A DNA stretch of 64,000 nt from Syntrophales bacterium (GTDB lineage: Bacteria > Desulfobacterota > Syntrophia > Syntrophales > UBA2210): NCBI GenBank assembly GCA_963662405.2, contig CAXXKT010000002.1, positions 128,001 to 192,000 on the forward strand, given 5' to 3'. The notes below the pieces were generated by a model. The model did no database searches. It was not told the origin of the DNA and worked only from the letters and a program-made list of their open reading frames with translations. This document shows positions 8,151-19,314 of this stretch, in pieces. The translations under genes were made by a program, and so were the position numbers. How positions within the stretch are numbered: position 1 is the first letter of the stretch; each line of letters opens with the position of its first letter.

Positions 8151-9254
8151 TCAGAGAGACCGTATCCCGATAACGTCCCTGACATGCATATGCGTTGATT
8201 CACTGACGTCGAGGCCTTCCTGGACCCTCTCCAGGACCAGGGGCTTTTCTTCGGGGAACTTGTATCCCTCGTAGTCCTGCCTGAAGAGCAGACCGCCCCG
8301 CCGGTCGAGCCATGAGTTCATCGCGTGATCGAAACAGACCCGGGAGGTTACGTCAAGTCCCTGAACCATCAGCTGCACCTCTTCGAGCCGCTCATGCGGG
8401 GATGAGAGGTGCAGGTCTTCCCGCTCATAGTCTTCGTAGATGGGGGTCCCGATCCTCGGCACGAAGGGCCGCGAACGGATGTAGTGGGGATTGATCGCCG
8501 TGAGGACGCGGGCGGTATTCTCCGCGTGCTGGCGCCACCGCTCCCGTCCGCCCAGATCGGGCATCCAGTACTCCGAAAGCTGAAAGCCCGCCTCCATGGC
8601 CTTTCTCCCGCCCTCGATCTGTTCTTCGCTCGTCACACCCTTTCGGACAATCCCGAGAAGTTCGTCGTCCCCCGTCTCGAGCCCCACGTGCAGGCGGGTG
8701 AGACCGGCATCACAGATCTCTTTCAACTGTTCAACCTTTCTCTGAGCGAGGGTCTTCGACCGTGCATAGGTGGTAACCCGCTTCAGCGAAGGAAGCGTCT
8801 TCCTGAGGTATCTCAGGACCTCCACGAATTCCGGCGGCCGCATGATCAGGCTGTTCGCGTCTTGGAGAAATGCCGTTTTAGCCCCCGAGGTGAGCCAGTC
8901 AAAGACAGAGATAAAACAGTGGTTGGTGTAGAATGACGGATCGGACCGCAGGATGGTTATCGCCACATCCCGGTTTATACGCCCGCCATGCCCCAGCTTC
9001 CGTGAGATTGCCTGTATCTCATCGATGATTCCCCTGACCGAATCGATATCGGCCTTTATCTCCTCCACCGACCGATAGACAAATTTTTCGCCCTTATACA
9101 TCTCGCAGAAGGTGCACTTGTTCCAGGGGCAGTTCCGGGTAAAGCGAAGGAGCAGGGAAAAACTCCCCCCCTCGCTCGGTGGTCGGTACATTCCAATATC
9201 AAAGGAATACCGCTTGAGTTTTTCAATATGGGGTCTATAGTCGCTTCCTGGCAT
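8151..9254 (-). CDS. Radical SAM protein
   Basis: CPWNKCTFC (CxxxCxxC); YRPPSE N-terminal motif; HVGLETG. Confidence 0.88.
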   Translation of the reverse strand: MPGSDYRPHIEKLKRYSFDIGMYRPPSEGGSFSLLLRFTRNCPWNKCTFCEMYKGEKFVYRSVEEIKADIDSVRGIIDEIQAISRKLGHGGRINRDVAITILRSDPSFYTNHCFISVFDWLTSGAKTAFLQDANSLIMRPPEFVEVLRYLRKTLPSLKRVTTYARSKTLAQRKVEQLKEICDAGLTRLHVGLETGDDELLGIVRKGVTSEEQIEGGRKAMEAGFQLSEYWMPDLGGRERWRQHAENTARVLTAINPHYIRSRPFVPRIGTPIYEDYEREDLHLSSPHERLEEVQLMVQGLDVTSRVCFDHAMNSWLDRRGGLLFRQDYEGYKFPEEKPLVLERVQEGLDVSESTHMHVRDVIGIRSL

Positions 9255-9481: not shown

Positions 9482-9514
9482 TTGACATTCGCGATAAAGG
9501 TTGTATCATACAAC
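9482..9514 (+). promoter_or_regulatory. Sigma70-like promoter overlapped by a 7-1-7 palindromic operator, upstream of marR-hgcAB
   Basis: TTGACA 9482-9487; TATCAT 9504-9509; palindrome GTTGTAT-C-ATACAAC 9500-9514. Confidence 0.6.
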
Positions 9515-9515
9515 T

Positions 9516-10022
9516 ATGTCTACTGAGAAACATCCCGATACGAGGAAGCTTCTTTTTCTGATTGCAGAGCTCTGCCAGACGGCGCGGTGCTGCCGACAGG
9601 ATGCCCTCTTTTGCGAAGGAGTTACCTTCTCACAGTTTCTTATCCTCGACGCCCTGGCCACCCAGGGTTTCATGAAGATGGCGGATCTCCATACCATCCT
9701 TGCCGTGGAGAAGAGCACCACGACGCGTCTCGTCAAACCCCTTATAGAAAGCAATCTGGTGCGACAGGAAAAGATGAACCACGACCGGAGAGCGATATAC
9801 CTGCGCACCACACCCGAAGGGGAAGAAACATACCGGCGGGTATGGGACTGTTTCACAGAATTTGCCGCGGCAATCAGGGGAAAGATTCCGGAAGATGAGC
9901 GGCCACAGGTCTATCGTGCCCTCGGTATCATCCTTGATGCGATACGTGATACATCGTCTGTATGCAATCGTAATAATACAAAGGATGCACATAATGGACA
10001 ATCCGAATTTCAGATCATTTGA
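9516..10022 (+). CDS. MarR-family transcriptional regulator with Cys-rich N-terminus
   Basis: wHTH TFSQFLIL...VEKSTTTRLVKPL...DRR; N-terminal CQTARCC...FC. Confidence 0.85.
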   Translation: MSTEKHPDTRKLLFLIAELCQTARCCRQDALFCEGVTFSQFLILDALATQGFMKMADLHTILAVEKSTTTRLVKPLIESNLVRQEKMNHDRRAIYLRTTPEGEETYRRVWDCFTEFAAAIRGKIPEDERPQVYRALGIILDAIRDTSSVCNRNNTKDAHNGQSEFQII

Positions 10023-11157
10023 GTATATTCAGAAAGCGCCGGACCTCGGGGTCATCTCCGCCCCCTCTACGTGAGCGACATCCTGCGGGGTTCAGGCGAA
10101 CCCCCCGCGCATGGATCAGCCCTTTGTGATCGGGTCAGTAGAGATCGGCATCGGCCGCGTTCCCCAGGTCTCGGCATCTCTCCGATGGATCGACCACTGG
10201 GGCACAATCAAGGCACGGGCAGGGATCAACCGGATGCGCTACACCGTTGATCCCGGTCTCTACGCACTGGGAAATCCCGACACCGAGTCGCCGGTCCTCG
10301 TCACGGCAAACTACAAACTGAGTTTCGACAGCCTCCGTTCCGCCCTCCCCGGCCGCGATGCCTGGATCCTCGTCCTCGACACAAAGGGGATCAATGTCTG
10401 GTGCGCCGCCGGGAAAGGGACCTTCGGGACGGCCGAACTTGTCGCACGCATCCAATCGAGCAGGGTTGACCGGGTCGTTGCCCACCGCACGATTATCCTG
10501 CCCCAGTTGGGCGCCCCCGGAGTCGCCGCGCACGTCGTCAAAAAATTCGCCGGGTTCTCGGTCCATTACGGCCCCATCAGGGCAACGGACCTGGGACGAT
10601 TCCTCGATGGAGGGATGCAGGCGACTCCCGAGATGCGTATCAAGACCTTCACTCTCGCGGAGCGGGCGGTCCTGATCCCCGTCGAGCTGGTTCTGTCGCT
10701 CAGAGCGGCTATCATCGTCGCACTGGCCATCATCCTCATCTCCGGTCTGGGAGGTCCCGGGACCTATGGACAGAATGTCCTCTCGTACGGCATCTTCTTT
10801 TCTACCGCCCTCTTCAGCGGTGTCTTTGCCGGGGCCGTGCTGACCCCCCTCCTCCTCCCCTATATCCCGGGGCGGGCCTTTGCGCTGAAGGGGTTGCTCA
10901 TCGGCCTGGTCACCGCCGTGATCCTCCTTTTTTTTCGGAGCCCCGATATGGCGCGGTGGGCGGACCGTCTTGAGGCCCTCGCGTGGTTTTCCCTGGTCCC
11001 CGCCGTGGCGGCGTACCTGGCAATGAACTTTACCGGCGCCTCGACCTATACCTCGCTGTCGGGCGTTAAAAAAGAGATGCGATGGGCCCTCCCTCTGGAA
11101 ATAACGGCCGGAGGAGCAGGAGGCCTGCTCTGGCTGGGATCACGCTTTATTGTATAG
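9994..11157 (+). CDS. hgcA: Mercury methylation corrinoid protein HgcA, predicted selenoprotein form (UGA 10072-10074); conventional call 10111..11157
   Basis: Cap-helix motif GINVWCAAGKGTFG, SPVLVTANYKLSFD, C-terminal TM helices and MNFTGASTYTSLSGVKKEM; upstream in-frame segment from ATG 9994 with SD AAGGA. Confidence 0.93.
10075..10110 (+). promoter_or_regulatory. Putative bacterial SECIS hairpin of hgcA
   Basis: GGGGTTC-AGGC-GAACCCC stem-loop; loop 10094-10097 begins 19 nt after the UGA and contains G. Confidence 0.7.
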
Positions 11158-11168
11158 GAGTCTATGAT

Positions 11169-11501
11169 ATGACACGGTTCAGGTATCTCAAAAATGTGAC
11201 TACCCTGATGCTCGATGAAGAGAAGTGCATTGGATGCGGCATCTGTATGGCCGTCTGTCCCCACGCGGTCTTTAATATGAACGGCGGTAAGCGTATTCGG
11301 ATCGAGGATCGCGACGCCTGCATGGAGTGCGGGGCCTGCGCACTCAACTGTCCGGCTGAGGCGTTGTCGGTAGAGTCGGGCGTCGGCTGCGCCGCAGCGG
11401 TCATCAACTCGATGCTCGGCGGAGGCTCCGCCACCGGGTGCTGCTGCAGCGTCGAACCCGACGAGGGCTCCCGTGCCTTGAAACGCCCGAGCTGTTGCTG
11501 A
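11169..11501 (+). CDS. hgcB: Mercury methylation 2[4Fe-4S] ferredoxin HgcB
   Basis: CIGCGICMAVCP and CMECGACALNCP; GVGCAAA; Cys-rich tail; SD AGGAG directly after hgcA. Confidence 0.93.
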   Translation: MTRFRYLKNVTTLMLDEEKCIGCGICMAVCPHAVFNMNGGKRIRIEDRDACMECGACALNCPAEALSVESGVGCAAAVINSMLGGGSATGCCCSVEPDEGSRALKRPSCC

Positions 11502-11666
11502 AATGTGTTGCGATCGATGGATTTGTATATATTCGACTTAGGTAACAATGCTCTGCCAATGCATCCTCTCGTGCTTCCTCTGCATCCCGCGATGTGGAAG
11601 CGTCCGCCGTCAACACGGAATAGTGAATCAATCGTCATCGGTCACAAAGGAAGTGAGGTACGACCA

Positions 11667-12821
11667 GTGAATCTGAAAGACAAGTATGCCATTGTCGGTG
11701 TGGGGTATACCCCCCAGGGGCGGGTCCCGGACAGGACGACGCTGAGTTTTCACCTCGAAGCCTGCGCCGACGCCATTGAGGACGCGGGGCTGAAACCCGG
11801 TGATATCGACGGCCTGATCGTCTATCGTCACTTTATCCCGCCGACGGGAGAATCGGATGTCGCCCCCTACGACGTGGCGCAGCACCTCGGACTGTCGCCG
11901 ACCTTCCTCGCGCAGGACGCCAACTGATCGCGCAGCCACTTACAGCACGCAGTTGGCGCGCTCGAATCCGGTCTTTGTAACTATGTGCTCCTTTCATACG
12001 CCCACTCGGGAGACAGCATGTTCCGCATGCTCACGGAGATGGCGGGTGATGCGGCCGCCTTCGGCCACTTCGGGGCGTCCGCTGGATACGCCCTTGCCGC
12101 GCGGCGCGCCATGCACGAATTCCACACGGGACCCGACACCTGGAAACAGATCGCCGTGGGACAGCGCAGATGGGCCAATCTCAATCCGCGGGCGGTGATG
12201 CATGCCAAGCCGATGACATCCGAAGATTACTATAACGCGAAGTGGCTTGTCGAACCCTTCCGCCTCCCCGATAACTGTCTGGTCAACGACGGCGGTCGTG
12301 CCTGTATCATCACGACGGTTGAGCGGGCGCGTGATCTGAAACAGCCCCTCGTCACCATCATGGGGATGGGGCAGCACAACCCCTCGACGGCCTTTCAGCA
12401 GGCCACCTATCTGGCGGGACCGACCGGCGCCCGGCAGGCACGCGAAACCGCCTTCAGGATGGCGGGGATCACCCTCGACGATATAGACGCCTGCGAGATC
12501 TACGACTGCTTTACCTATACCGTCGAGATCACCCTCCAGGACTACGGCTTCTTCGGCCCCGGCGAGGGAGAGAACTGGTTCTCGGGAGGAACGATCGAGC
12601 CGGGGGGACAAATGCCCGTGAACACATCGGGCGGCCAGTTGTCCGAGGCGTACCACATGGGGCTGACCCCCCTTACCGAGGGGGTGATGCAGCTCATGAG
12701 ACGGTGCGGGGAGCGGCAACTCGGCCCCGCGACGGACACAAAAGAACCCGAGATTATCCTGTGCAGCGATAACGGGGCCATACTGCAGACACATTCCTGT
12801 TATGTCCTGAGGAGGTGGTAA
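11667..12821 (+). CDS. Thiolase-fold protein (Ltp2/SCP2-thiolase-like) with in-frame UGA at codon 87 (11925-11927), predicted selenocysteine
   Basis: GTG 11667 after GAGGT; N-half AIVGVG...AIEDAGL..DIDG and C-half DGG.A, EIYDCF, VNTSGGQLSEAY share one frame; full length 384 aa. Confidence 0.8.
11944..11962 (+). promoter_or_regulatory. Putative SECIS-like hairpin of the thiolase gene
   Basis: AGCaCGC-AGTTG-GCGcGCT; loop 11951-11955 begins 23 nt after the UGA; an alternative longer pairing GCGC.GCCA/TGGC.GCGC is also possible. Confidence 0.45.
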
Positions 12822-12823
12822 CC

Positions 12824-13234
12824 ATGACGTCATACGAAAAACCCCTGCCGCAGATCAATGCCGACACGAAAGAGTTCTGGAACGGGTGCAGAGAGCACCT
12901 GATAAAGATGCAGAAATGCGGCGATTGCGGAACACTCCGCCTGCCCCCGTCATTCCTCTGTCCCCGTTGCCATTCCCGGAACACGGACTGGATCGCCGCC
13001 ACGGGAAGGGGGTCGATCTATACCTTTACCGTCAACCATGTGGCCTTTCACCCGGCCTTCCAGGAAGATCTTCCCTATGTGGTTGCGGTCGTGAAACTGG
13101 ACGAGGGTCCGCACCTGCTGACGAATATCGTCGGCTGTGACCCGGCCGCGGTGCGGTGCGATATGCCCGTGGAGGTCGTCTGGGACGATGTGACCGATCA
13201 GTTCAGCTTGCCAAAGTTTCAACCGGTCGTGTAG
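12824..13234 (+). CDS. DUF35 Zn-ribbon/OB-fold protein (thiolase partner)
   Basis: FWNGCREH...QKCGDCG...CPRC, G.G.IYTFTV, PYVVAVVKLDEGP. Confidence 0.9.
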   Translation: MTSYEKPLPQINADTKEFWNGCREHLIKMQKCGDCGTLRLPPSFLCPRCHSRNTDWIAATGRGSIYTFTVNHVAFHPAFQEDLPYVVAVVKLDEGPHLLTNIVGCDPAAVRCDMPVEVVWDDVTDQFSLPKFQPVV

Positions 13235-13292
13235 GATACATGATCTGCTTGTTTACGAGAGATGTACAAACCGTTAGGAAACCTGGGCTGCC

Positions 13293-15965
13293 ATGACCGA
13301 CATACACCCCAACCGGTTTTATCTGACCTCCACCGGGAGGCTGGCGCGCGACCTCACCCGTCGCTTCCGTCTCCAGTGCCTGCGCGAAGAGAAAGAGGGA
13401 TGGGAGCCCCTCCGGGCAATGAGCCTGAACGCCTGGCTCACGCTGACCTGGACCGAATCGTGGCCCGATAAGATCCCCGCTCCTGATCTGTACCGGATGA
13501 ACCTCTGGAAGGAGATGGCCGACCGGATCGCGCCCCCTCCCTCACTCGTTGCGGACACGAATCTCTGTGCCATCCTCGACGAGACCTACGGAATCATGGC
13601 GCGTCACGGGATCGAACCATCATCCGGTTTTCCCTCCACCCCCCTCGTCGAATGGCGGCGCGAGATCAGTGGGGTTTTTACCCGATCGCTCGAATCGGAC
13701 GGGCTCTTCCATCCGTCGCTTCTTCCGCTCTTGATACGCCGGGGGATAATAGACGGCAGGATCTCCCTTCCTGAAAAGATCACACTCGCCGGCTTCGAAT
13801 TCCCCGCCCCCCTGGAGCGGGATCTGTTCGCAATACTTGAGAAATACAGTGATGTCACATGTGTCATTTCCCCAGATCGCCGTCCTGAGCGTCTCGAGGC
13901 CCTGGCCCTCCCCTCTCCCGAACAGGAGGTGATCTATCTCGTCCATCGCCTCGTCCGGGATGCTCAAACGATCCCCCTTCACCGGATCGGCGTGATCGTC
14001 CCGGACATGGATCGGTACGCGAAGCATCTGGAGGGGGCCCTCAGGGATGTGACAGCCCAGGCTCCGCCCCACGGCTCTCACTGGTTCAACGTAACAAAGG
14101 GGGTTGCGCTCCTCGAGACGCACCTCATGCAGGCGGCCCTTCTTCCCCTGCGCTTCATCATCGAAGGGCAGCCCCGCGAGCGGCTCCTCTCTCTTTTCCT
14201 GTCCCCCTACTACGGATACTCACAGGGGAGGCGGCACGAGATCGCACGCGCCGACATCTCCTGGCGAAAGCGCTCCCTCGATTTCGGCCTCGACAATCTC
14301 ATGGCGGCGCTGAAGAGAGAAGATCCCCATACCTACGCCCTCATCCCCCCGGATATGCTCGACCATCTCTCCTTCTTCTGCCACAGTGAAGAGATAGGGA
14401 ATCAGAGACGGGGGTCCTTCTGGTTGGGACAACTCAGGGACCTGTGGACCCGCCTTGGCTTCCCCATCCTCGCGGACGAAAAGGATACCGTCGATAAAAG
14501 AGCCCTCGAAGAGATCACGGATGAGATCGACCGCCACCTCTCCCATACGGGGATGGATGGCCATGAATTTTCAGGTTGGCTGACATACCTCGCCTCACGG
14601 AAGACGGTGCAGACCGGCGCCGCGGAGGACGCCGGGATACAGGTTATGGGCATGATCGAATCGCGGGGCCTCGATTTTGACAAGGCGTACGTCCTCGGGA
14701 TGGACGACCGATCGCTCCCCGAACCGGCACGCCCCCTCCCCTTCCTCGATTCGACGGAGAGAAGGCTGGTCCAGGGGGGAACGGCACAGAGCCAGTACGA
14801 GTTCGCTCGTCGGTCCATAGACCACCTCATGACCTGCGCTCCGGATATCACCCTCCTCCGTGCCGAGCAGGAAGACCTCAAGCCCCTCCCTCCCTCCCCC
14901 TTCTGGCCGGGCGACAGCGACACGCGCTCTATCGATATCTGGAACACCCCCGATCCGGCCTGGTTGCGGGCCGGATGGCTCGACTCTTCCCATAAAGGAA
15001 TACATGAGAGAATATCGCCTGAACAAATGACAGAAGGACCTCTTGATCCAAGCATTATCCCCAGGACCGTCTCGGTGAGCCGGCTCCAGACGGCGGTCAC
15101 CTGCCCCTACCGCTTCTTTATCGAGAGCGTCATTAAGGTCGAACCGCTGGAGGATATCGAGGCGGATGCCTCCCCCCGCGAAAGAGGGACCCGAATACAC
15201 CGGGCCCTGGCTCTCTTTACGCAGAGGCTGAGAGAACGGGGGGTGGACCTGGGCAGCGACGAGGCGCGCACCCTCCTGACGGCCTGTGAGGATGAAACAC
15301 TCCAGAGTGTAGCGAATAAGCCACACTGGGCGGTGGAACAGAGGCGCTGGATCGGGGACAGGGACGATCCGGAGGGAGGCGGAATCCTCTCCGAGTGGCT
15401 CGACCGCGAAAGGACGCGCTGGACCGGAGGGTGGCGGTGCGTTGCCGAGGAGACCCCTTTCGACGCCCTCGCGATTCCCGGGCTCCCCTTCACCCTGCGG
15501 GGAAGAATCGACCGGGTGGATTTCAGCGACCAGGAGGGGTTCCTCCTCTGGGACTACAAAACGGGCGCCGTTCCCTCGCGTGCGGATATCGTCACGCGCC
15601 TGAAGGAACCCCAGCTCATTATCTATCTCATGGCGCTCCTTGGCGGCCATATCGCCGCCCTGGGTGACCGGATAGACGCGAATGTGCCTTTTTCGGCCGG
15701 GTATGTCCGTCTCAAGTCAGCCGGCGATATCGCCATCTCTCCGATCAAGGGGATCGAGTCCTCCCTGCAGGAGTGGCACACGGCCCTCGCCAAACTGGGA
15801 GCAATCCTGGGATCCGGTGATTTTCGGCCCGAACCCTTCCCCGTTTCGGGAACCACCGGGAGGGAGAAGACCTGCGAGGAATGCCCGTTCATAACCCTGT
15901 GCCGTGTGGGAATACGAAGCCGGCGCGCGTCGGAAACGGAGGAGACCGATGAAGGAACCGAATGA
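13293..15965 (+). CDS. addB: AddB/RexB-like helicase-nuclease subunit (PD-(D/E)XK, Fe-S staple)
   Basis: CPYRFF, LRGRIDRVD, WDYKTG, QLIIY and C-terminal CEECPFITLC. Confidence 0.82.
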   Translation: MTDIHPNRFYLTSTGRLARDLTRRFRLQCLREEKEGWEPLRAMSLNAWLTLTWTESWPDKIPAPDLYRMNLWKEMADRIAPPPSLVADTNLCAILDETYGIMARHGIEPSSGFPSTPLVEWRREISGVFTRSLESDGLFHPSLLPLLIRRGIIDGRISLPEKITLAGFEFPAPLERDLFAILEKYSDVTCVISPDRRPERLEALALPSPEQEVIYLVHRLVRDAQTIPLHRIGVIVPDMDRYAKHLEGALRDVTAQAPPHGSHWFNVTKGVALLETHLMQAALLPLRFIIEGQPRERLLSLFLSPYYGYSQGRRHEIARADISWRKRSLDFGLDNLMAALKREDPHTYALIPPDMLDHLSFFCHSEEIGNQRRGSFWLGQLRDLWTRLGFPILADEKDTVDKRALEEITDEIDRHLSHTGMDGHEFSGWLTYLASRKTVQTGAAEDAGIQVMGMIESRGLDFDKAYVLGMDDRSLPEPARPLPFLDSTERRLVQGGTAQSQYEFARRSIDHLMTCAPDITLLRAEQEDLKPLPPSPFWPGDSDTRSIDIWNTPDPAWLRAGWLDSSHKGIHERISPEQMTEGPLDPSIIPRTVSVSRLQTAVTCPYRFFIESVIKVEPLEDIEADASPRERGTRIHRALALFTQRLRERGVDLGSDEARTLLTACEDETLQSVANKPHWAVEQRRWIGDRDDPEGGGILSEWLDRERTRWTGGWRCVAEETPFDALAIPGLPFTLRGRIDRVDFSDQEGFLLWDYKTGAVPSRADIVTRLKEPQLIIYLMALLGGHIAALGDRIDANVPFSAGYVRLKSAGDIAISPIKGIESSLQEWHTALAKLGAILGSGDFRPEPFPVSGTTGREKTCEECPFITLCRVGIRSRRASETEETDEGTE

Positions 15966-18900
15966 CGCCGCCCAGCGTACCGCCGCCCTCGACACGACGC
16001 GGTCGCACCACGTCGAATCCCCCGCGGGTTCCGGCAAGACACTTCTCCTGACCCGCCGGTTTCTCAAACTCCTCGCGGAGGTCCGTGACCCGGCAGAGAT
16101 CCTGGCCATCACCTTCACCGAGAAGGCGGCCGGGGAGATGCGCGAGCGGATCACCGGCTTCCTGAACGGCAGATCACCCGCATCCGATCCCGACGGAGAA
16201 ATGGCCTCCCTCGCCGAACAGGCCCTCCGGGCGCACCAGGACCAGGCGCACCTTCTCGCCTCTGCCGATACACTCAATATCATGACGTTTCACGGCTTCT
16301 GCAGCCATATCGCCCGACGTGCCCCCCTCGAGGCACAGGTCACCCCCGATTTCGAGGTCATCGACGAAGACGCTCAGACGATCCTGATCGACGAAATCGT
16401 CCGGGCCGCCCTCCGGGGCTTCTTCTCCTACCCCGCGACCGACCCGAGGCGGAGGGCGTTTGAGAACCGTCTCCTCTACCATAACAACAACTGGACAGGC
16501 ATCTCGGAGGAATTTACCGGCATCATACGGAACCGGGGACGCTTCAGGGACCTGATCGCCCTCATACGCAGCACGGGTGGGGGGGGCATCGCGAAGCTTC
16601 CCGACATCCTGGCTCAACGGCTTCGCGGTTACGTCGAAGGCCGTCTGCAGGACTTAATGTATAGCTTTCAGAAAACGGATCTTGGCATGGACTGGCAAGC
16701 CTTCACAACCAACCTGCTCAAAGAAGAGGCACCGCTGGGTGCATTCCTCCCTCTGTCTCTTCCAGGGGCCACATGGGAAGAACTCCCCACGTGGCAGACG
16801 ATCGCCAATGCCCTCACCACAAAAACCGGGGGTACGCCGCTCAAGCGTTTCGGTCCCAAGAACGGCTTCTACAACGGCTTCGGCAAGACCCCGTGGGGGG
16901 AGATGATCTCCGCCCTGGGTGATCCCTGCTCCACCGCTCTCGCCGAGGTCAAGAGCCTCCCCTCCCCCGGCGATATGGCATCCGAGATGGATACCCTCGC
17001 GGACTTTATCGTTACCGCGGCGGACCTTATCGACCGGTACGAGACCGCCTGTCGTCAGCGGCGCGCCGTCGACTTCGACGGCCTGGAGGAGGCCGCGCTC
17101 CGGGCCCTCACCGACAGCGACCCATCGGAGATCCAGCTCTATCTCGATCACCGGATACGCCACCTTATGGTGGATGAATTCCAGGATACCAACCGGGCCC
17201 AGTGGGAACTGGTCGGCCGCCTCTGCGCCGGGTGGTCCCCCGGTGACGGACGGTCCCTCTTCATCGTGGGAGACCCCAAACAGTCCATCTATTCCTTCAG
17301 AAACGCCGAGGTGAGCCTCTTCATGGAGGCGAAGGAAGGGATACCCGTTCCCGGCGGGCGAACGGTTCCCCTCGATACACACCGCCTGGCCACGAACTTC
17401 CGCTCCGGGGAACGGCTGATCGAGTGGATCAACGGTCTTTTCGATACGGTGGTAATGAAAGACCCCGATCCCGACGCCGACGAGGTCCCCTTCAGTCCCT
17501 CCGAGCCCTACGGTGGAAGGGACGGAAGCGTGGTATCCCTCTCTCTCTTCACGGACGACGACAGGGACACCGCAAAAGACAAGGAGGCCGCGTGGCTTGC
17601 CGGAAAGGTCGGGGAGATCCTGCGAATGGTTGGCACCAACGCCTCCATCGGTATCCTCCTCTTCACCCGGAACCGGATCGGCCGCTATCTCACGGCATTG
17701 AAGGAGCACGGCATCCCCGTCCAGGTGCGGGAGGGAATCGGACTGATGGATCGCCCCGAGGTGGTGCACCTCATGAAGATCACCGAGTTCCTGGCGAATC
17801 CCCATGACGACCTCGCCGGGGCGTCCCTCCTTCGCTCTCCCTGGTCATGGTTCGACGCGAACCGCCTCTATGAGACCGCTTGTAAGGAACCGGAGAGCTG
17901 GATAGAGAAGATCCTCCTCACGGCCCGCTCCCATCCCGAGATGAAACCCCTCACGCAGGCGATAGAAAACGCCTCCCGCCGTGTGGGGCGCGATCCCTTG
18001 GGGACAACCGTCAGGGGCTTCTGGGAAGACCTGGACGGCCCCCGGCAGACGGCCTCCCGATACGGCATGGCAGGCGTGGCAAACTGCATGCGCTTCTTCG
18101 AGATACTGGAAGGAGGCCACCGCGGCACCCCTCTGGAAACCCTCCGACAGGTGAAGACAACGATAGATTCCTTCTACGAGCCTGCCGATCCCACCGCCTC
18201 GCGCTCCCCCGTGGAGATGATGACCATCCACAAGGCCAAGGGGCTCGAATTCGATTATGTCTTCCTCCCTTTCCTCGACTGGGCGCCCCTCTCGGATGTA
18301 CGAACGGGCTCCCCTCCCTATCTGATGGAGCGTGTCCCGGGGACGGAAGGAGAATATCTCGTCGCCATGGGGAAGGACCGGAGGAGGAAGGAGATCCCGC
18401 CGGCATTCAACCTCTTGAAGACCTTTCGCAAAAAAAGGCGATGGGGAGAGGCGAAACGTCTCTTCTACGTCGCGGCAACGCGGGCGAGAGAGGCCCTCTA
18501 TATGAGCGGCATCGCCAAGGAAACCGAAGATGGTGCCCTCGTAGCGGGGAGGGAAAACATCCTCAAATGGGTCATGGAGTACGAGGGGATCGCCGATACG
18601 CCTGTCGACGCCGTGAGCGCCGGGTGGAATATCCCCGTGGCAATCAACCCCGCATCTCCTCCCCTTCCGCCGGAAGAAAAGACTGCCGAGACCGCTCTTC
18701 CCGAACCGTATGATATCCAGCCGGAACGGCCCGCTTTTATCATGGCAAAATCCCCTTCCTCGTACGCGGAGGACACCCTGCGGAGAGAAGGCAACCTTGC
18801 CGTTGATGAGGCGGTCTTTAATCGGATACGGGGAACGGTCATACACACGATTCTGAGCACAGTTATACGTGGCAAGACCCTTCCCGCTGAGGAGGCAGTG

Positions 18901-19314
18901 GCGTGTGCCCTGCGGGCCGAAGGGATCGGGAAGGGCCAGGCGGGCAAAACAGCCGGTGAGATCCTCGAAGAGACGAAAAAGACACTCGCCGATCCCTTCA
19001 TCGCCCGGCTGATATCAGCCCCGGAAATACACAACGAATGGGAGATGGAAGATGTCCCCACGGAGGGGCGGATTCGCTCCGGCGTCATTGACCTCGCGGC
19101 ACGGGACGGTAATACCTGGTGGATCTGCGATTTCAAGACCTCGCGGCCGGAAGACGGTCAGTCGGTAGAAGAGTTTGTCGCCCATGAGCGGGGACTCTAC
19201 CGCCCCCAGCTTGAGGCCTACCGCGAGATGCTCTCCCACCTCAAAGGCATCCCGGAGACTCAGATCCGTGTGGGGATCTACCTGACCTCGCTCCTGCGTT
19301 GGGAAGAACTGTAG
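15949..19314 (+). CDS. addA: AddA/RecB-like UvrD helicase-nuclease
   Basis: Walker A SPAGSGKT, ITFTEKAA, VDEFQDT, VGDPKQSIYSFR, MTIHKAKGLEFD, GVIDL and DFKT. Confidence 0.88.
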   Translation: MKEPNDAAQRTAALDTTRSHHVESPAGSGKTLLLTRRFLKLLAEVRDPAEILAITFTEKAAGEMRERITGFLNGRSPASDPDGEMASLAEQALRAHQDQAHLLASADTLNIMTFHGFCSHIARRAPLEAQVTPDFEVIDEDAQTILIDEIVRAALRGFFSYPATDPRRRAFENRLLYHNNNWTGISEEFTGIIRNRGRFRDLIALIRSTGGGGIAKLPDILAQRLRGYVEGRLQDLMYSFQKTDLGMDWQAFTTNLLKEEAPLGAFLPLSLPGATWEELPTWQTIANALTTKTGGTPLKRFGPKNGFYNGFGKTPWGEMISALGDPCSTALAEVKSLPSPGDMASEMDTLADFIVTAADLIDRYETACRQRRAVDFDGLEEAALRALTDSDPSEIQLYLDHRIRHLMVDEFQDTNRAQWELVGRLCAGWSPGDGRSLFIVGDPKQSIYSFRNAEVSLFMEAKEGIPVPGGRTVPLDTHRLATNFRSGERLIEWINGLFDTVVMKDPDPDADEVPFSPSEPYGGRDGSVVSLSLFTDDDRDTAKDKEAAWLAGKVGEILRMVGTNASIGILLFTRNRIGRYLTALKEHGIPVQVREGIGLMDRPEVVHLMKITEFLANPHDDLAGASLLRSPWSWFDANRLYETACKEPESWIEKILLTARSHPEMKPLTQAIENASRRVGRDPLGTTVRGFWEDLDGPRQTASRYGMAGVANCMRFFEILEGGHRGTPLETLRQVKTTIDSFYEPADPTASRSPVEMMTIHKAKGLEFDYVFLPFLDWAPLSDVRTGSPPYLMERVPGTEGEYLVAMGKDRRRKEIPPAFNLLKTFRKKRRWGEAKRLFYVAATRAREALYMSGIAKETEDGALVAGRENILKWVMEYEGIADTPVDAVSAGWNIPVAINPASPPLPPEEKTAETALPEPYDIQPERPAFIMAKSPSSYAEDTLRREGNLAVDEAVFNRIRGTVIHTILSTVIRGKTLPAEEAVACALRAEGIGKGQAGKTAGEILEETKKTLADPFIARLISAPEIHNEWEMEDVPTEGRIRSGVIDLAARDGNTWWICDFKTSRPEDGQSVEEFVAHERGLYRPQLEAYREMLSHLKGIPETQIRVGIYLTSLLRWEEL

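Follow-up and report, generated by a model that had tools for sequence, protein, structure and literature searches.

A candidate selenocysteine-containing enzyme family within the thiolase superfamily of anaerobic Desulfobacterota and their relatives

Is a gene with a stop codon a quarter of the way into its frame broken, or is the codon read as an amino acid, and if so, which one and for what chemistry? A 64,000-nucleotide (nt) stretch of a Syntrophales bacterium genome raises this question. In this stretch (the window, with positions counted from its first letter), a gene for a thiolase-fold protein forms one frame from a GTG at 11667, which matches the N-termini of full-length homologues. 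The sole internal stop of the 11667-12821 frame is a TGA at codon 87, in the context FLAQDAN-U-SRSHLQHAVGALESG, and a mechanical list of open reading frames (ORFs) therefore shows it as two pieces, one ending at 11927 and the other running from 11985 to 12821. The original prediction for this locus, made from the sequence, described a single 384-codon frame without any other lesion and proposed a selenocysteine (Sec)-dependent enzyme. The sequence bears out the frame, and the proposal is supported by the Cys of homologues at this column, by TGA-bearing orthologues, by the pattern of selection on the gene and by the selenocysteine genes of the organism. Based on these data, we describe what is apparently a real, conserved and unpublished selenoprotein family within the thiolase superfamily. 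The features at the 5' end of the gene are as follows.

11654..11658, + strand: Shine-Dalgarno-like GAGGT, 8 nt before the GTG start, read from the sequence
11667..12821, + strand: gene for the candidate thiolase-fold (SCP2/Ltp2-like) selenoprotein, GTG start, 384 codons plus TAA (12819-12821)
11925..11927, + strand: candidate Sec-UGA, codon 87, at the thiolase nucleophile column, Cys in homologues

The residue expected at codon 87 can be read from relatives. A search of a 5.8-billion-protein collection returned 2316 relatives, and the best 120 were taken for alignment with MAFFT. These 120 are full-length proteins (382-407 amino acids, aa) with 66-75% identity to the read-through protein, and every one has Cys at column 87, in conserved N-C-[AS]-R surroundings. 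At the codon level, we searched 61 genomes, the window's own plus 60 relatives, and found matches at E <= 1e-60 in 18 of them, at 20 places. Eighteen places are orthologous (69-100% identity). Fifteen of these, in 14 genomes and with the window's own included, carry exactly one in-frame stop, which is always TGA and always at column 87; the remaining three have TGY there. The other two places are paralogues of 41% identity with no in-frame stop. A scan of public genomes, one genome per species, gave 216 relatives, and column 87 was read in the 80 most similar loci: 65 have TGA, 8 have TGT and 7 have TGC. The 80 loci span Syntrophales, Smithella, Desulfobacterales, Desulfatiglandales and Dehalococcoidia, and they include the cultured Desulfatitalea alkaliphila M08but, whose locus (L066) is a Sec form; Cys stands in all eight loci of Dehalococcoidia/Chloroflexota. 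Across 206 orthologues the column is Cys in 136 and Sec-TGA in 70, that is, Cys or Sec in 206/206. The original prediction had set Cys at this column against Trp, Arg or Gly, and Cys is what both the 120 homologues and the 136 Cys forms contain.

The simplest objection is that the TGA is a true stop, whether by fresh nonsense mutation, by sequencing error or in a naturally split gene whose halves are made separately. Gene callers treat it in this way. When we repeated the protein search with residues 100-384 only, 97 of the best 120 relatives listed were new, and 96 of these 97 are 263-297 aa long and begin at query residues 92-122. The assembly is also likely to contain at least one homopolymer error, the one in selD (see below). 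Against a true stop, TGA at the same column recurs at 79 further loci (14 in 13 related genomes and 65 in public genomes), which is more than chance, across up to about 30% protein divergence and with no other lesion; such independent genomes with TGA plus a conserved hairpin are what the original prediction had looked to for support. Purifying selection is also equal on the two sides of the codon. Among 15 Sec-form orthologues (Nei-Gojobori, 47 pairs whose dS is not saturated), the ratio of nonsynonymous to synonymous substitution rates (dN/dS) has a median of 0.105 upstream of the TGA and of 0.114 downstream. Given that dN/dS is about 0.1 on each side, a comparison that the original prediction had also suggested, both halves are maintained as protein. 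In addition, the N-terminal 86 residues are a core part of the thiolase fold and would have to be a separate peptide. Contigs from four public sequencing runs, which can show presence only, contain two pieces that cross the TGA (X2, 11825-11995, and X6, 11673-11963), with no difference at 11925-11927 among the matches listed; none of the 23 runs listed for the gene is an RNA run. Taken together, we consider a true stop at codon 87 extremely improbable.

If codon 87 is translated, the genome should be able to make and insert Sec. We found SelA, SelB (a 657-aa ORF) and a Sec-type SelD, which itself has a Sec-TGA in HGAG-U-ACK (contig C3, 552135-553065), and a tRNA-Sec with anticodon tca lies on another contig of the genome; a tRNA scan of the window gave none. 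An absence of selABCD, which the original prediction had named as a result that would speak against it, is thus not borne out: selA, selB, selD and tRNA-Sec are all present. SelA was matched in 56 of the 61 genomes, including all 14 with the TGA form, and none of the five genomes without a SelA match has the TGA form. As a test this co-occurrence has low power, since almost every genome of the group has SelA.

The UGA might be read through outside the Sec system, either by near-cognate suppression giving Trp or Cys or through a reassigned code, and sequence alone cannot tell read-through from Sec insertion. However, TGA terminates 19 of the 45 long ORFs in the window and is therefore an ordinary stop elsewhere, and the homologues have Cys and never Trp or Gly. 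The Sec machinery is complete, with SelA in all 14 TGA-form genomes. Read-through of this kind would also leave unexplained a conserved hairpin with a G-U loop at SECIS distance (SECIS, selenocysteine insertion sequence), together with a forced Val codon, both described next. We regard it as highly unlikely.

11945..11961, + strand: candidate bacterial SECIS upper hairpin GCACGC-AGTTG-GCGCGC, 6-bp stem with one A.C mismatch here, apical loop AGUUG at 11951-11955

The original prediction had noticed a hairpin with an AGTTG loop 23 nt downstream of the TGA, and we find it at the position listed above, with the loop beginning 23 nt past the TGA. To compare it across the family, we reduced 80 Sec-form places to 71 unique 60-nt segments. 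The hairpin GCACGC-AGUUG-GCG[C/U]GC follows the UGA in all Sec forms and is nearly invariant. Across the six pairs of the stem, 90.6% of cells are paired, and three of these pairs never vary; pair 21-37 is G-C in 66 segments, G-U in 2 and A-U in 1, and pair 23-35 is A-U in 33 and a mismatch in 38, the window's among them. In the loop, G28 and U29 are invariant in 71/71 segments. The coding sequence bears the same mark. The lowest synonymous-codon entropy of the gene falls in the 12-codon stretch from codon 90, over the hairpin (0.62 vs a gene mean of 1.15; rank 1 of 343), and Val stands at codon 96, the source of the loop G-U, in 70/70 Sec forms vs 26/136 Cys forms. The hairpin sequence is missing from distant Cys forms. 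In three Cys forms that nest within the Sec forms (L026/L004, L029 and L102) it persists, and there it looks like a relic of a recent Sec-to-Cys change.

The bacterial SECIS model, as given in parts of PMC13188914, has a loop of 3-9 nt and an upper stem of 4-16 bp, separated from the UGA by 16-37 nt. Its first two loop nucleotides include a G, which in most cases has a G or a U behind it, and its minimum free energy (MFE) is -7.5 kcal/mol or below. The hairpin agrees with this geometry on all four counts, with a 5-nt AGUUG loop, a 6-bp stem, a loop G and 23 nt of spacing. When it is enforced over nt 4-50, the window's sequence gives -9.3 kcal/mol and 68 of the 71 sequences lie at -7.5 or below. 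The genome's own selD has a similarly built hairpin, in which the stem is 6 bp long and the loop, CGGGC, follows the UGA at 16 nt. An Rfam scan of 11600-12900 at E <= 10 returned three chance-level matches (E about 9) and no SECIS family, and RNAalifold on 15 sequences gave 8 pairs with no compensatory change. Extra lower helices (columns 4-7/38-41 and 11-13/46-48) were considered and rejected, as they are paired in just 70% and 88% of cells with many mismatches. As a separate observation, metagenome contigs from foreign organisms (X1 and X6) align to the gene over the TGA-plus-hairpin stretch alone (11913-11972), where depth peaks; this pattern fits the TGA-plus-hairpin being the most nucleotide-conserved part of the gene.

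Several results argue against the decoding of UGA-87 as Sec. The covariation score of the hairpin is weak (0.091 vs 0.081 for shuffles, 16 of 500 of which attain it) and there is just one covarying series in the stem (G-C > G-U > A-U). Because the stem hardly varies, little covariation can be seen, and the case for the hairpin therefore rests on conservation. The window's 17-nt hairpin alone, with its A.C mismatch, reaches only -5.3 kcal/mol, the 45-nt region is no more stable than its shuffles (z = -0.30), and the free MFE of the window's region is a different, non-conserved structure. The share of TGA in the public loci (65 of 80) is biased toward Sec forms because the loci were ranked by their likeness to a Sec-form query. 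Lastly, in the three-contig assembly selD switches to another frame within a run of four G near C3:552577. This is probably a homopolymer error of the assembly rather than a true frameshift; if it were real, the strain could not make selenophosphate. With these points weighed, comparison of the sequences still makes it very probable that UGA-87 is decoded as Sec. In the mechanism we propose, the SelA/SelB/SelD/tRNA-Sec system would read the codon as directed by the in-frame SECIS hairpin.

Sec and Cys appear to have been exchanged repeatedly in this family. A first tree was built from 89 distinct rows out of 100 places, after dropping L013, other contig-end pieces under 370 aa and exact duplicates; it requires 8 Sec/Cys changes, at least 6 of which are forced by well-supported branches. 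A second tree (FastTree), to which the Cys forms from the database were added for a total of 208 rows, requires 15 changes, at least 11 of them forced. The first tree puts the Sec forms at the base, but in the second the added Cys forms interleave with them.

What, then, would Sec do in this protein? The read-through protein matches Pfam Thiolase_C_1 at 6.4e-38, and its best NCBIfam match, subfamily PRK06158, scores 247 bits, well below the model cut-off of 421. An AlphaFold model built from 62 of 121 sequences has a mean predicted local distance difference test (pLDDT) score of 84.5 and a predicted template modeling score (pTM) of 0.88. It superimposes on 4u4e, 6ok1, 9myr, 6esq and 7yvy with template modeling (TM) scores of 0.81-0.89, with values of 0.84-0.86 for the first four, and Foldseek gives E values down to 6.5e-39 against thiolase-fold structures. 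In a profile alignment, with the residue counted along the alignment, U87 falls on Cys85 of 6ESQ and on the equivalent Cys of 7YVY (E-A-A-C-A-S-G), and Cys85 is named as the active Cys of the 6ESQ thiolase in a part of PMC6392133. The original prediction had placed the UGA within about two residues of the thiolase nucleophile, and this alignment sharpens the placement to the nucleophile itself.

12501..12512, + strand: Y279-D-C281-F motif (residues 279-282), at the HDCF position of SCP2 thiolases; YDCY/YDHF in Sal/Ltp2
12651..12653, + strand: Tyr329 in GGQLSEAY (residues 322-329), aligned with TcLtp2 Tyr344 and with the His of the thiolase G-H motif

The YDCF and GGQLSEAY motifs reported by the original prediction stand at residues 279-282 and 322-329, and the likeness to Ltp2 that it drew from them holds for the Tyr of YDxF and the Tyr of EAY. 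Y279, D280, C281, F282 and Y329 are invariant in 120/120 homologues. Excerpts of PMC12329534 give the catalytic residues of related enzymes: Tyr294 of YDHF and Tyr344 in TcLtp2, Tyr302 and Cys304 of YDCY in CtSal, which has Gly at the nucleophile position, and a YDCF motif in TbSLP; they also give the acid/base role that the Cys of HDCF has in SCP2 thiolases. Tyr279 is equivalent to Ltp2 Tyr294 and Sal Tyr302. For the second catalytic residue of the aldolases, both candidates are present here, Tyr329 (GEAY of 6ok1) and the Sal-type Cys281. By profile alignment, the nucleophile column is Ala in Ltp2, Ser in Sal and Gly in 4u4e. Judged by these residues, the family would be a hybrid that combines the thiolase nucleophile (as Sec) and the acid/base Cys with both aldolase tyrosines. 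Since one defining feature of each class fails, the thiolase His in one case and the aldolase's lack of a nucleophile Cys in the other, we file the family under neither, and given that both catalytic His are invariant Tyr it is not to be filed as a canonical thiolase.

Thiolase-fold proteins and DUF35 proteins are a textbook pair, and the gene has such a partner. The original prediction had placed a DUF35 gene 2 nt after the stop; its ATG at 12824 is 2 nt past the stop of the thiolase gene, and two Pfam domains, zf-ChsH2 and OB_ChsH2_C, support the assignment. The features of this two-gene unit are as follows.

12810..12815, + strand: ribosome-binding site (AGGAGG) of the DUF35 gene, lying within the thiolase gene at its 3' end, read from the sequence
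12824..13234, + strand: DUF35 partner gene (zinc ribbon plus OB fold), ATG, 136 codons plus stop; Pfam OB_ChsH2_C 8.2e-26, zf-ChsH2 1.6e-9
13225..13245, + strand: terminator-like hairpin followed by a T-rich tail, closing the two-gene unit; from a consensus scan, a pattern match only, with 2 found vs 1.2 expected

Like its solved relatives, the protein probably acts in a complex with its DUF35 partner. Among solved sequences, 4u4e is the closest (E 5.7e-67); the aldolases 6ok1 (TcLtp2) and 9myr (CtSal) come next, ahead of the true thiolases 7yvy and 6esq. The first, 4U4E, is an uncharacterized putative thiolase of Sphaerobacter thermophilus (37% identity; TM 0.84-0.89) with IYDSFTY in place of IYDCFTY, Gly/Ser at the nucleophile column and Ser for Cys281. 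The second-best (6OK1, E 1.4e-45) is the TcLtp2-ChsH2(DUF35) steroid side-chain retro-aldolase, which shares the DUF35 partner, the Tyr in YDxF and a Tyr344 (GEAY) that falls on Tyr329 (SEAY). Unlike our protein, which keeps both Cys positions, the first as Sec, TcLtp2 has Ala at its nucleophile column and His in YDHF. The CtSal-Shy(DUF35) bile-acid aldolase (9MYR) has the same fold and a DUF35 partner, and it shares with Trypanosoma brucei SLP (YDCF) a Y-D-C-[YF] motif with catalytic Tyr and Cys (excerpts of PMC12329534). Sal and SLP differ in lacking a nucleophile Cys, where the paper, in the same excerpts, says Gly and our hidden Markov model alignment gives Ser within 2 residues, and Sal has Gln where Tyr329 stands here.

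Likeness to the true thiolases lies in the fold and in the nucleophile. The archaeal acetoacetyl-CoA thiolase of the complex of thiolase, HMG-CoA synthase (HMG, 3-hydroxy-3-methylglutaryl) and DUF35 protein (6ESQ/6ET9) and the Pyrococcus furiosus enzyme (7YVY) superimpose with TM 0.81-0.86, place the nucleophile Cys85 on U87 within a common E-A-x-C-A, and share the Cys in xDCF and the DUF35 partner. They differ in sequence (24-26% identity), in having His in HDCF and in G-H where Tyr stands here, and in Cys for Sec; the HMG-CoA synthase-like neighbor of the 6ESQ complex was not found in 12 loci that we sampled for context. PhlC of the PhlABC Friedel-Crafts acyltransferase (5M3K) is a thiolase-fold subunit with a DUF35 partner, PhlB. 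According to the portion of PMC6392133 available, its Cys88 carries an acetyl group in crystals, with no clear base to activate it and Tyr298 near the thiolate. PhlC is, by analogy, a precedent for an acyl-enzyme at this column without the classical His/His setting, although it is only about 20% identical, keeps His347, belongs to a three-subunit complex and takes phenolic acyl donors in place of CoA. Catalogued selenoprotein genes with an in-ORF SECIS (e.g. FdhA and SelD) resemble the present gene in a UGA on the Cys of homologues, a small G-loop hairpin and frequent Sec/Cys exchange; they differ in that the chemistry expected here is acyl transfer or C-C cleavage and not redox.

In ordinary thiolases, two His polarize the carbonyl and activate the nucleophile. 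In the enzyme we propose, the selenolate of Sec87 would attack the thioester or 3-keto carbonyl of an acyl-CoA to give an acyl-selenoester enzyme intermediate, Cys281 of YDCF would serve as the acid/base for the enolate, and Tyr279 and Tyr329 would stand in for the two His, their hydroxyls polarizing the carbonyl. A selenol has a pKa of about 5.2 vs 8.3 for a thiol (PMC13188914, in part), and a selenol with no need of an activating base would explain a preference for Sec in an active site without His. Given that residue 87 is invariably Cys or Sec and that aldolases manage without it, a covalent nucleophile is its likeliest role.

Other features count against a nucleophilic Sec87. Both thiolase catalytic His (HDCF; G-H-[PA]) are replaced, by Tyr279 and Tyr329, and the nearest solved relatives are aldolases or uncharacterized proteins; a thiolase-type acyl-enzyme mechanism is therefore something we infer. 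In the model, the loop at about 322-326 has pLDDT below 50. Sec could instead be inserted without accepting an acyl group. The enzyme would then be a retro-aldolase of the Ltp2/Sal type that works through Tyr279/Tyr329 or Tyr279/Cys281 and in which Sec87 has an auxiliary acid/base role or positions the substrate, or else Sec87 and Cys281 would form a selenenylsulfide redox switch. For this alternative speak the order of the solved relatives, with 4u4e, 6ok1 and 9myr closer than the true thiolases, the invariance here of both the Ltp2 Tyr positions and the Sal Tyr/Cys dyad while both thiolase His are missing, and the main text of PMC13188914, by which most of the more than 110 prokaryotic selenoprotein families are thought to serve redox functions. 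However, the characterized aldolases of the fold have Gly, Ala or Ser at a column that is Cys or Sec in all 206 orthologues. That column is the one whose Cys is acylated in thiolases and in PhlC, and PhlC, in the accessible part of its description, achieves this without an obvious base and with a Tyr nearby. Nor is a steroid-aldolase-type hydratase partner conserved in the 12 sampled loci. We consider a non-nucleophilic Sec87 possible yet rather unlikely.

We thus lean toward the full statement that this is an intact gene for a thiolase-fold enzyme acting on CoA esters, in which UGA-87 is read as Sec and Sec87 is the covalent nucleophile. A broader proposal is evenly balanced in our judgment: that this is a natural family using Sec as a covalent acyl-transfer nucleophile and not for redox, forming an acyl-selenoester to make or break C-C bonds of CoA esters, with both activating His lost and the thiolase Cys residues combined with the aldolase Tyr residues. 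If this is true, selenium would act as a built-in deprotonated nucleophile and a better leaving group, and would explain the repeated Sec/Cys exchange in anaerobic degraders of fatty acids, aromatics and hydrocarbons that live near the thermodynamic limit. With Sec at an acyl-accepting position, selenium biochemistry would come to include C-C bond and acyl-transfer chemistry, and the family would offer a natural series of Sec/Cys pairs for testing what selenium gains in nucleophilic catalysis.

Has such a protein been described before? The original prediction knew of no selenoprotein in the thiolase superfamily, and none turned up in our full-text literature searches, which found no paper on a Sec thiolase, or in the catalogues. 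The words thiolase, acetyltransferase, acyl-CoA and lipid-transfer are absent from the main texts of PMC13188914 (the 2026 inventory), PMC9312934 (a 2022 review), PMC1976440 (the Olavius symbiont paper) and the preprint 10.1101/2022.07.06.499078, with supplements and subscription-only papers outside the scope; the main text of the 2026 inventory also has no ketoacyl, aldolase, SCP2, PF22691, PF02803 or PF00108, and no acyltransferase is among the families it lists. Sec-form genes are common in Syntrophales, Desulfobacterales and their relatives, and public sets store them as truncated entries, the relatives that begin after the TGA being named 'acetyl-CoA acetyltransferase' or 'thiolase family protein'. 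Metabolic reconstructions and proteomics of these anaerobes will therefore miss or misread the Sec-form genes.

Gene context did not yield a substrate. Our context sample took 12 of the 80 loci and ran 71 of their 110 greedy ORFs against Pfam, after excluding fragments of the thiolase gene, its antisense ORFs and some of the short ORFs. The DUF35 gene is directly downstream in 11 of the 12 loci and is the only conserved neighbor. Genes of beta-oxidation type lie near the thiolase gene in four loci (L044, L082, L066 and L103), and crotonase-type hydratases in two. A steroid-degradation context or a MaoC-type hydratase partner was found neither among these 71 neighbor ORFs nor among 16 ORFs of the window. 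The context thus points just to beta-oxidation-like CoA-ester metabolism in anaerobic Desulfobacterota.

In the window itself, three genes lie upstream of the thiolase unit: a radical S-adenosylmethionine (SAM) gene on the minus strand at 8154-9254, one for a MarR-type regulator at 9501-10019 and, at 10111-11154, one for a 348-aa protein whose CdhD domain (CO dehydrogenase/acetyl-CoA synthase delta) is only partial. A 158-aa ORF without a Pfam match (11165-11638, minus strand) fills most of the 509-nt gap before the thiolase gene. Directly downstream, at 13293-19314, comes an ordinary recombination-repair pair with an overlap of about 60 nt, made up of an AddB-like PD-(D/E)XK nuclease (890 aa) and an AddA-like UvrD helicase-nuclease (1136 aa).

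Two further observations concern other genomes. One of them (G033) has two Sec-form copies on different contigs (L003 and L020), 86% and 85% identical to the window's protein; the gene could have been duplicated recently, or the bin, with contamination of about 5%, could be mixed. In an uncultured Syntrophus, an ORF near the Sec-thiolase gene (L090:6919-8016), with a squalene-hopene cyclase upstream, encodes 2Fe-2S, 4Fe-4S and molybdopterin domains but ends about 80 residues into the last of these, as would be expected from a Sec-TGA in a formate dehydrogenase alpha subunit.

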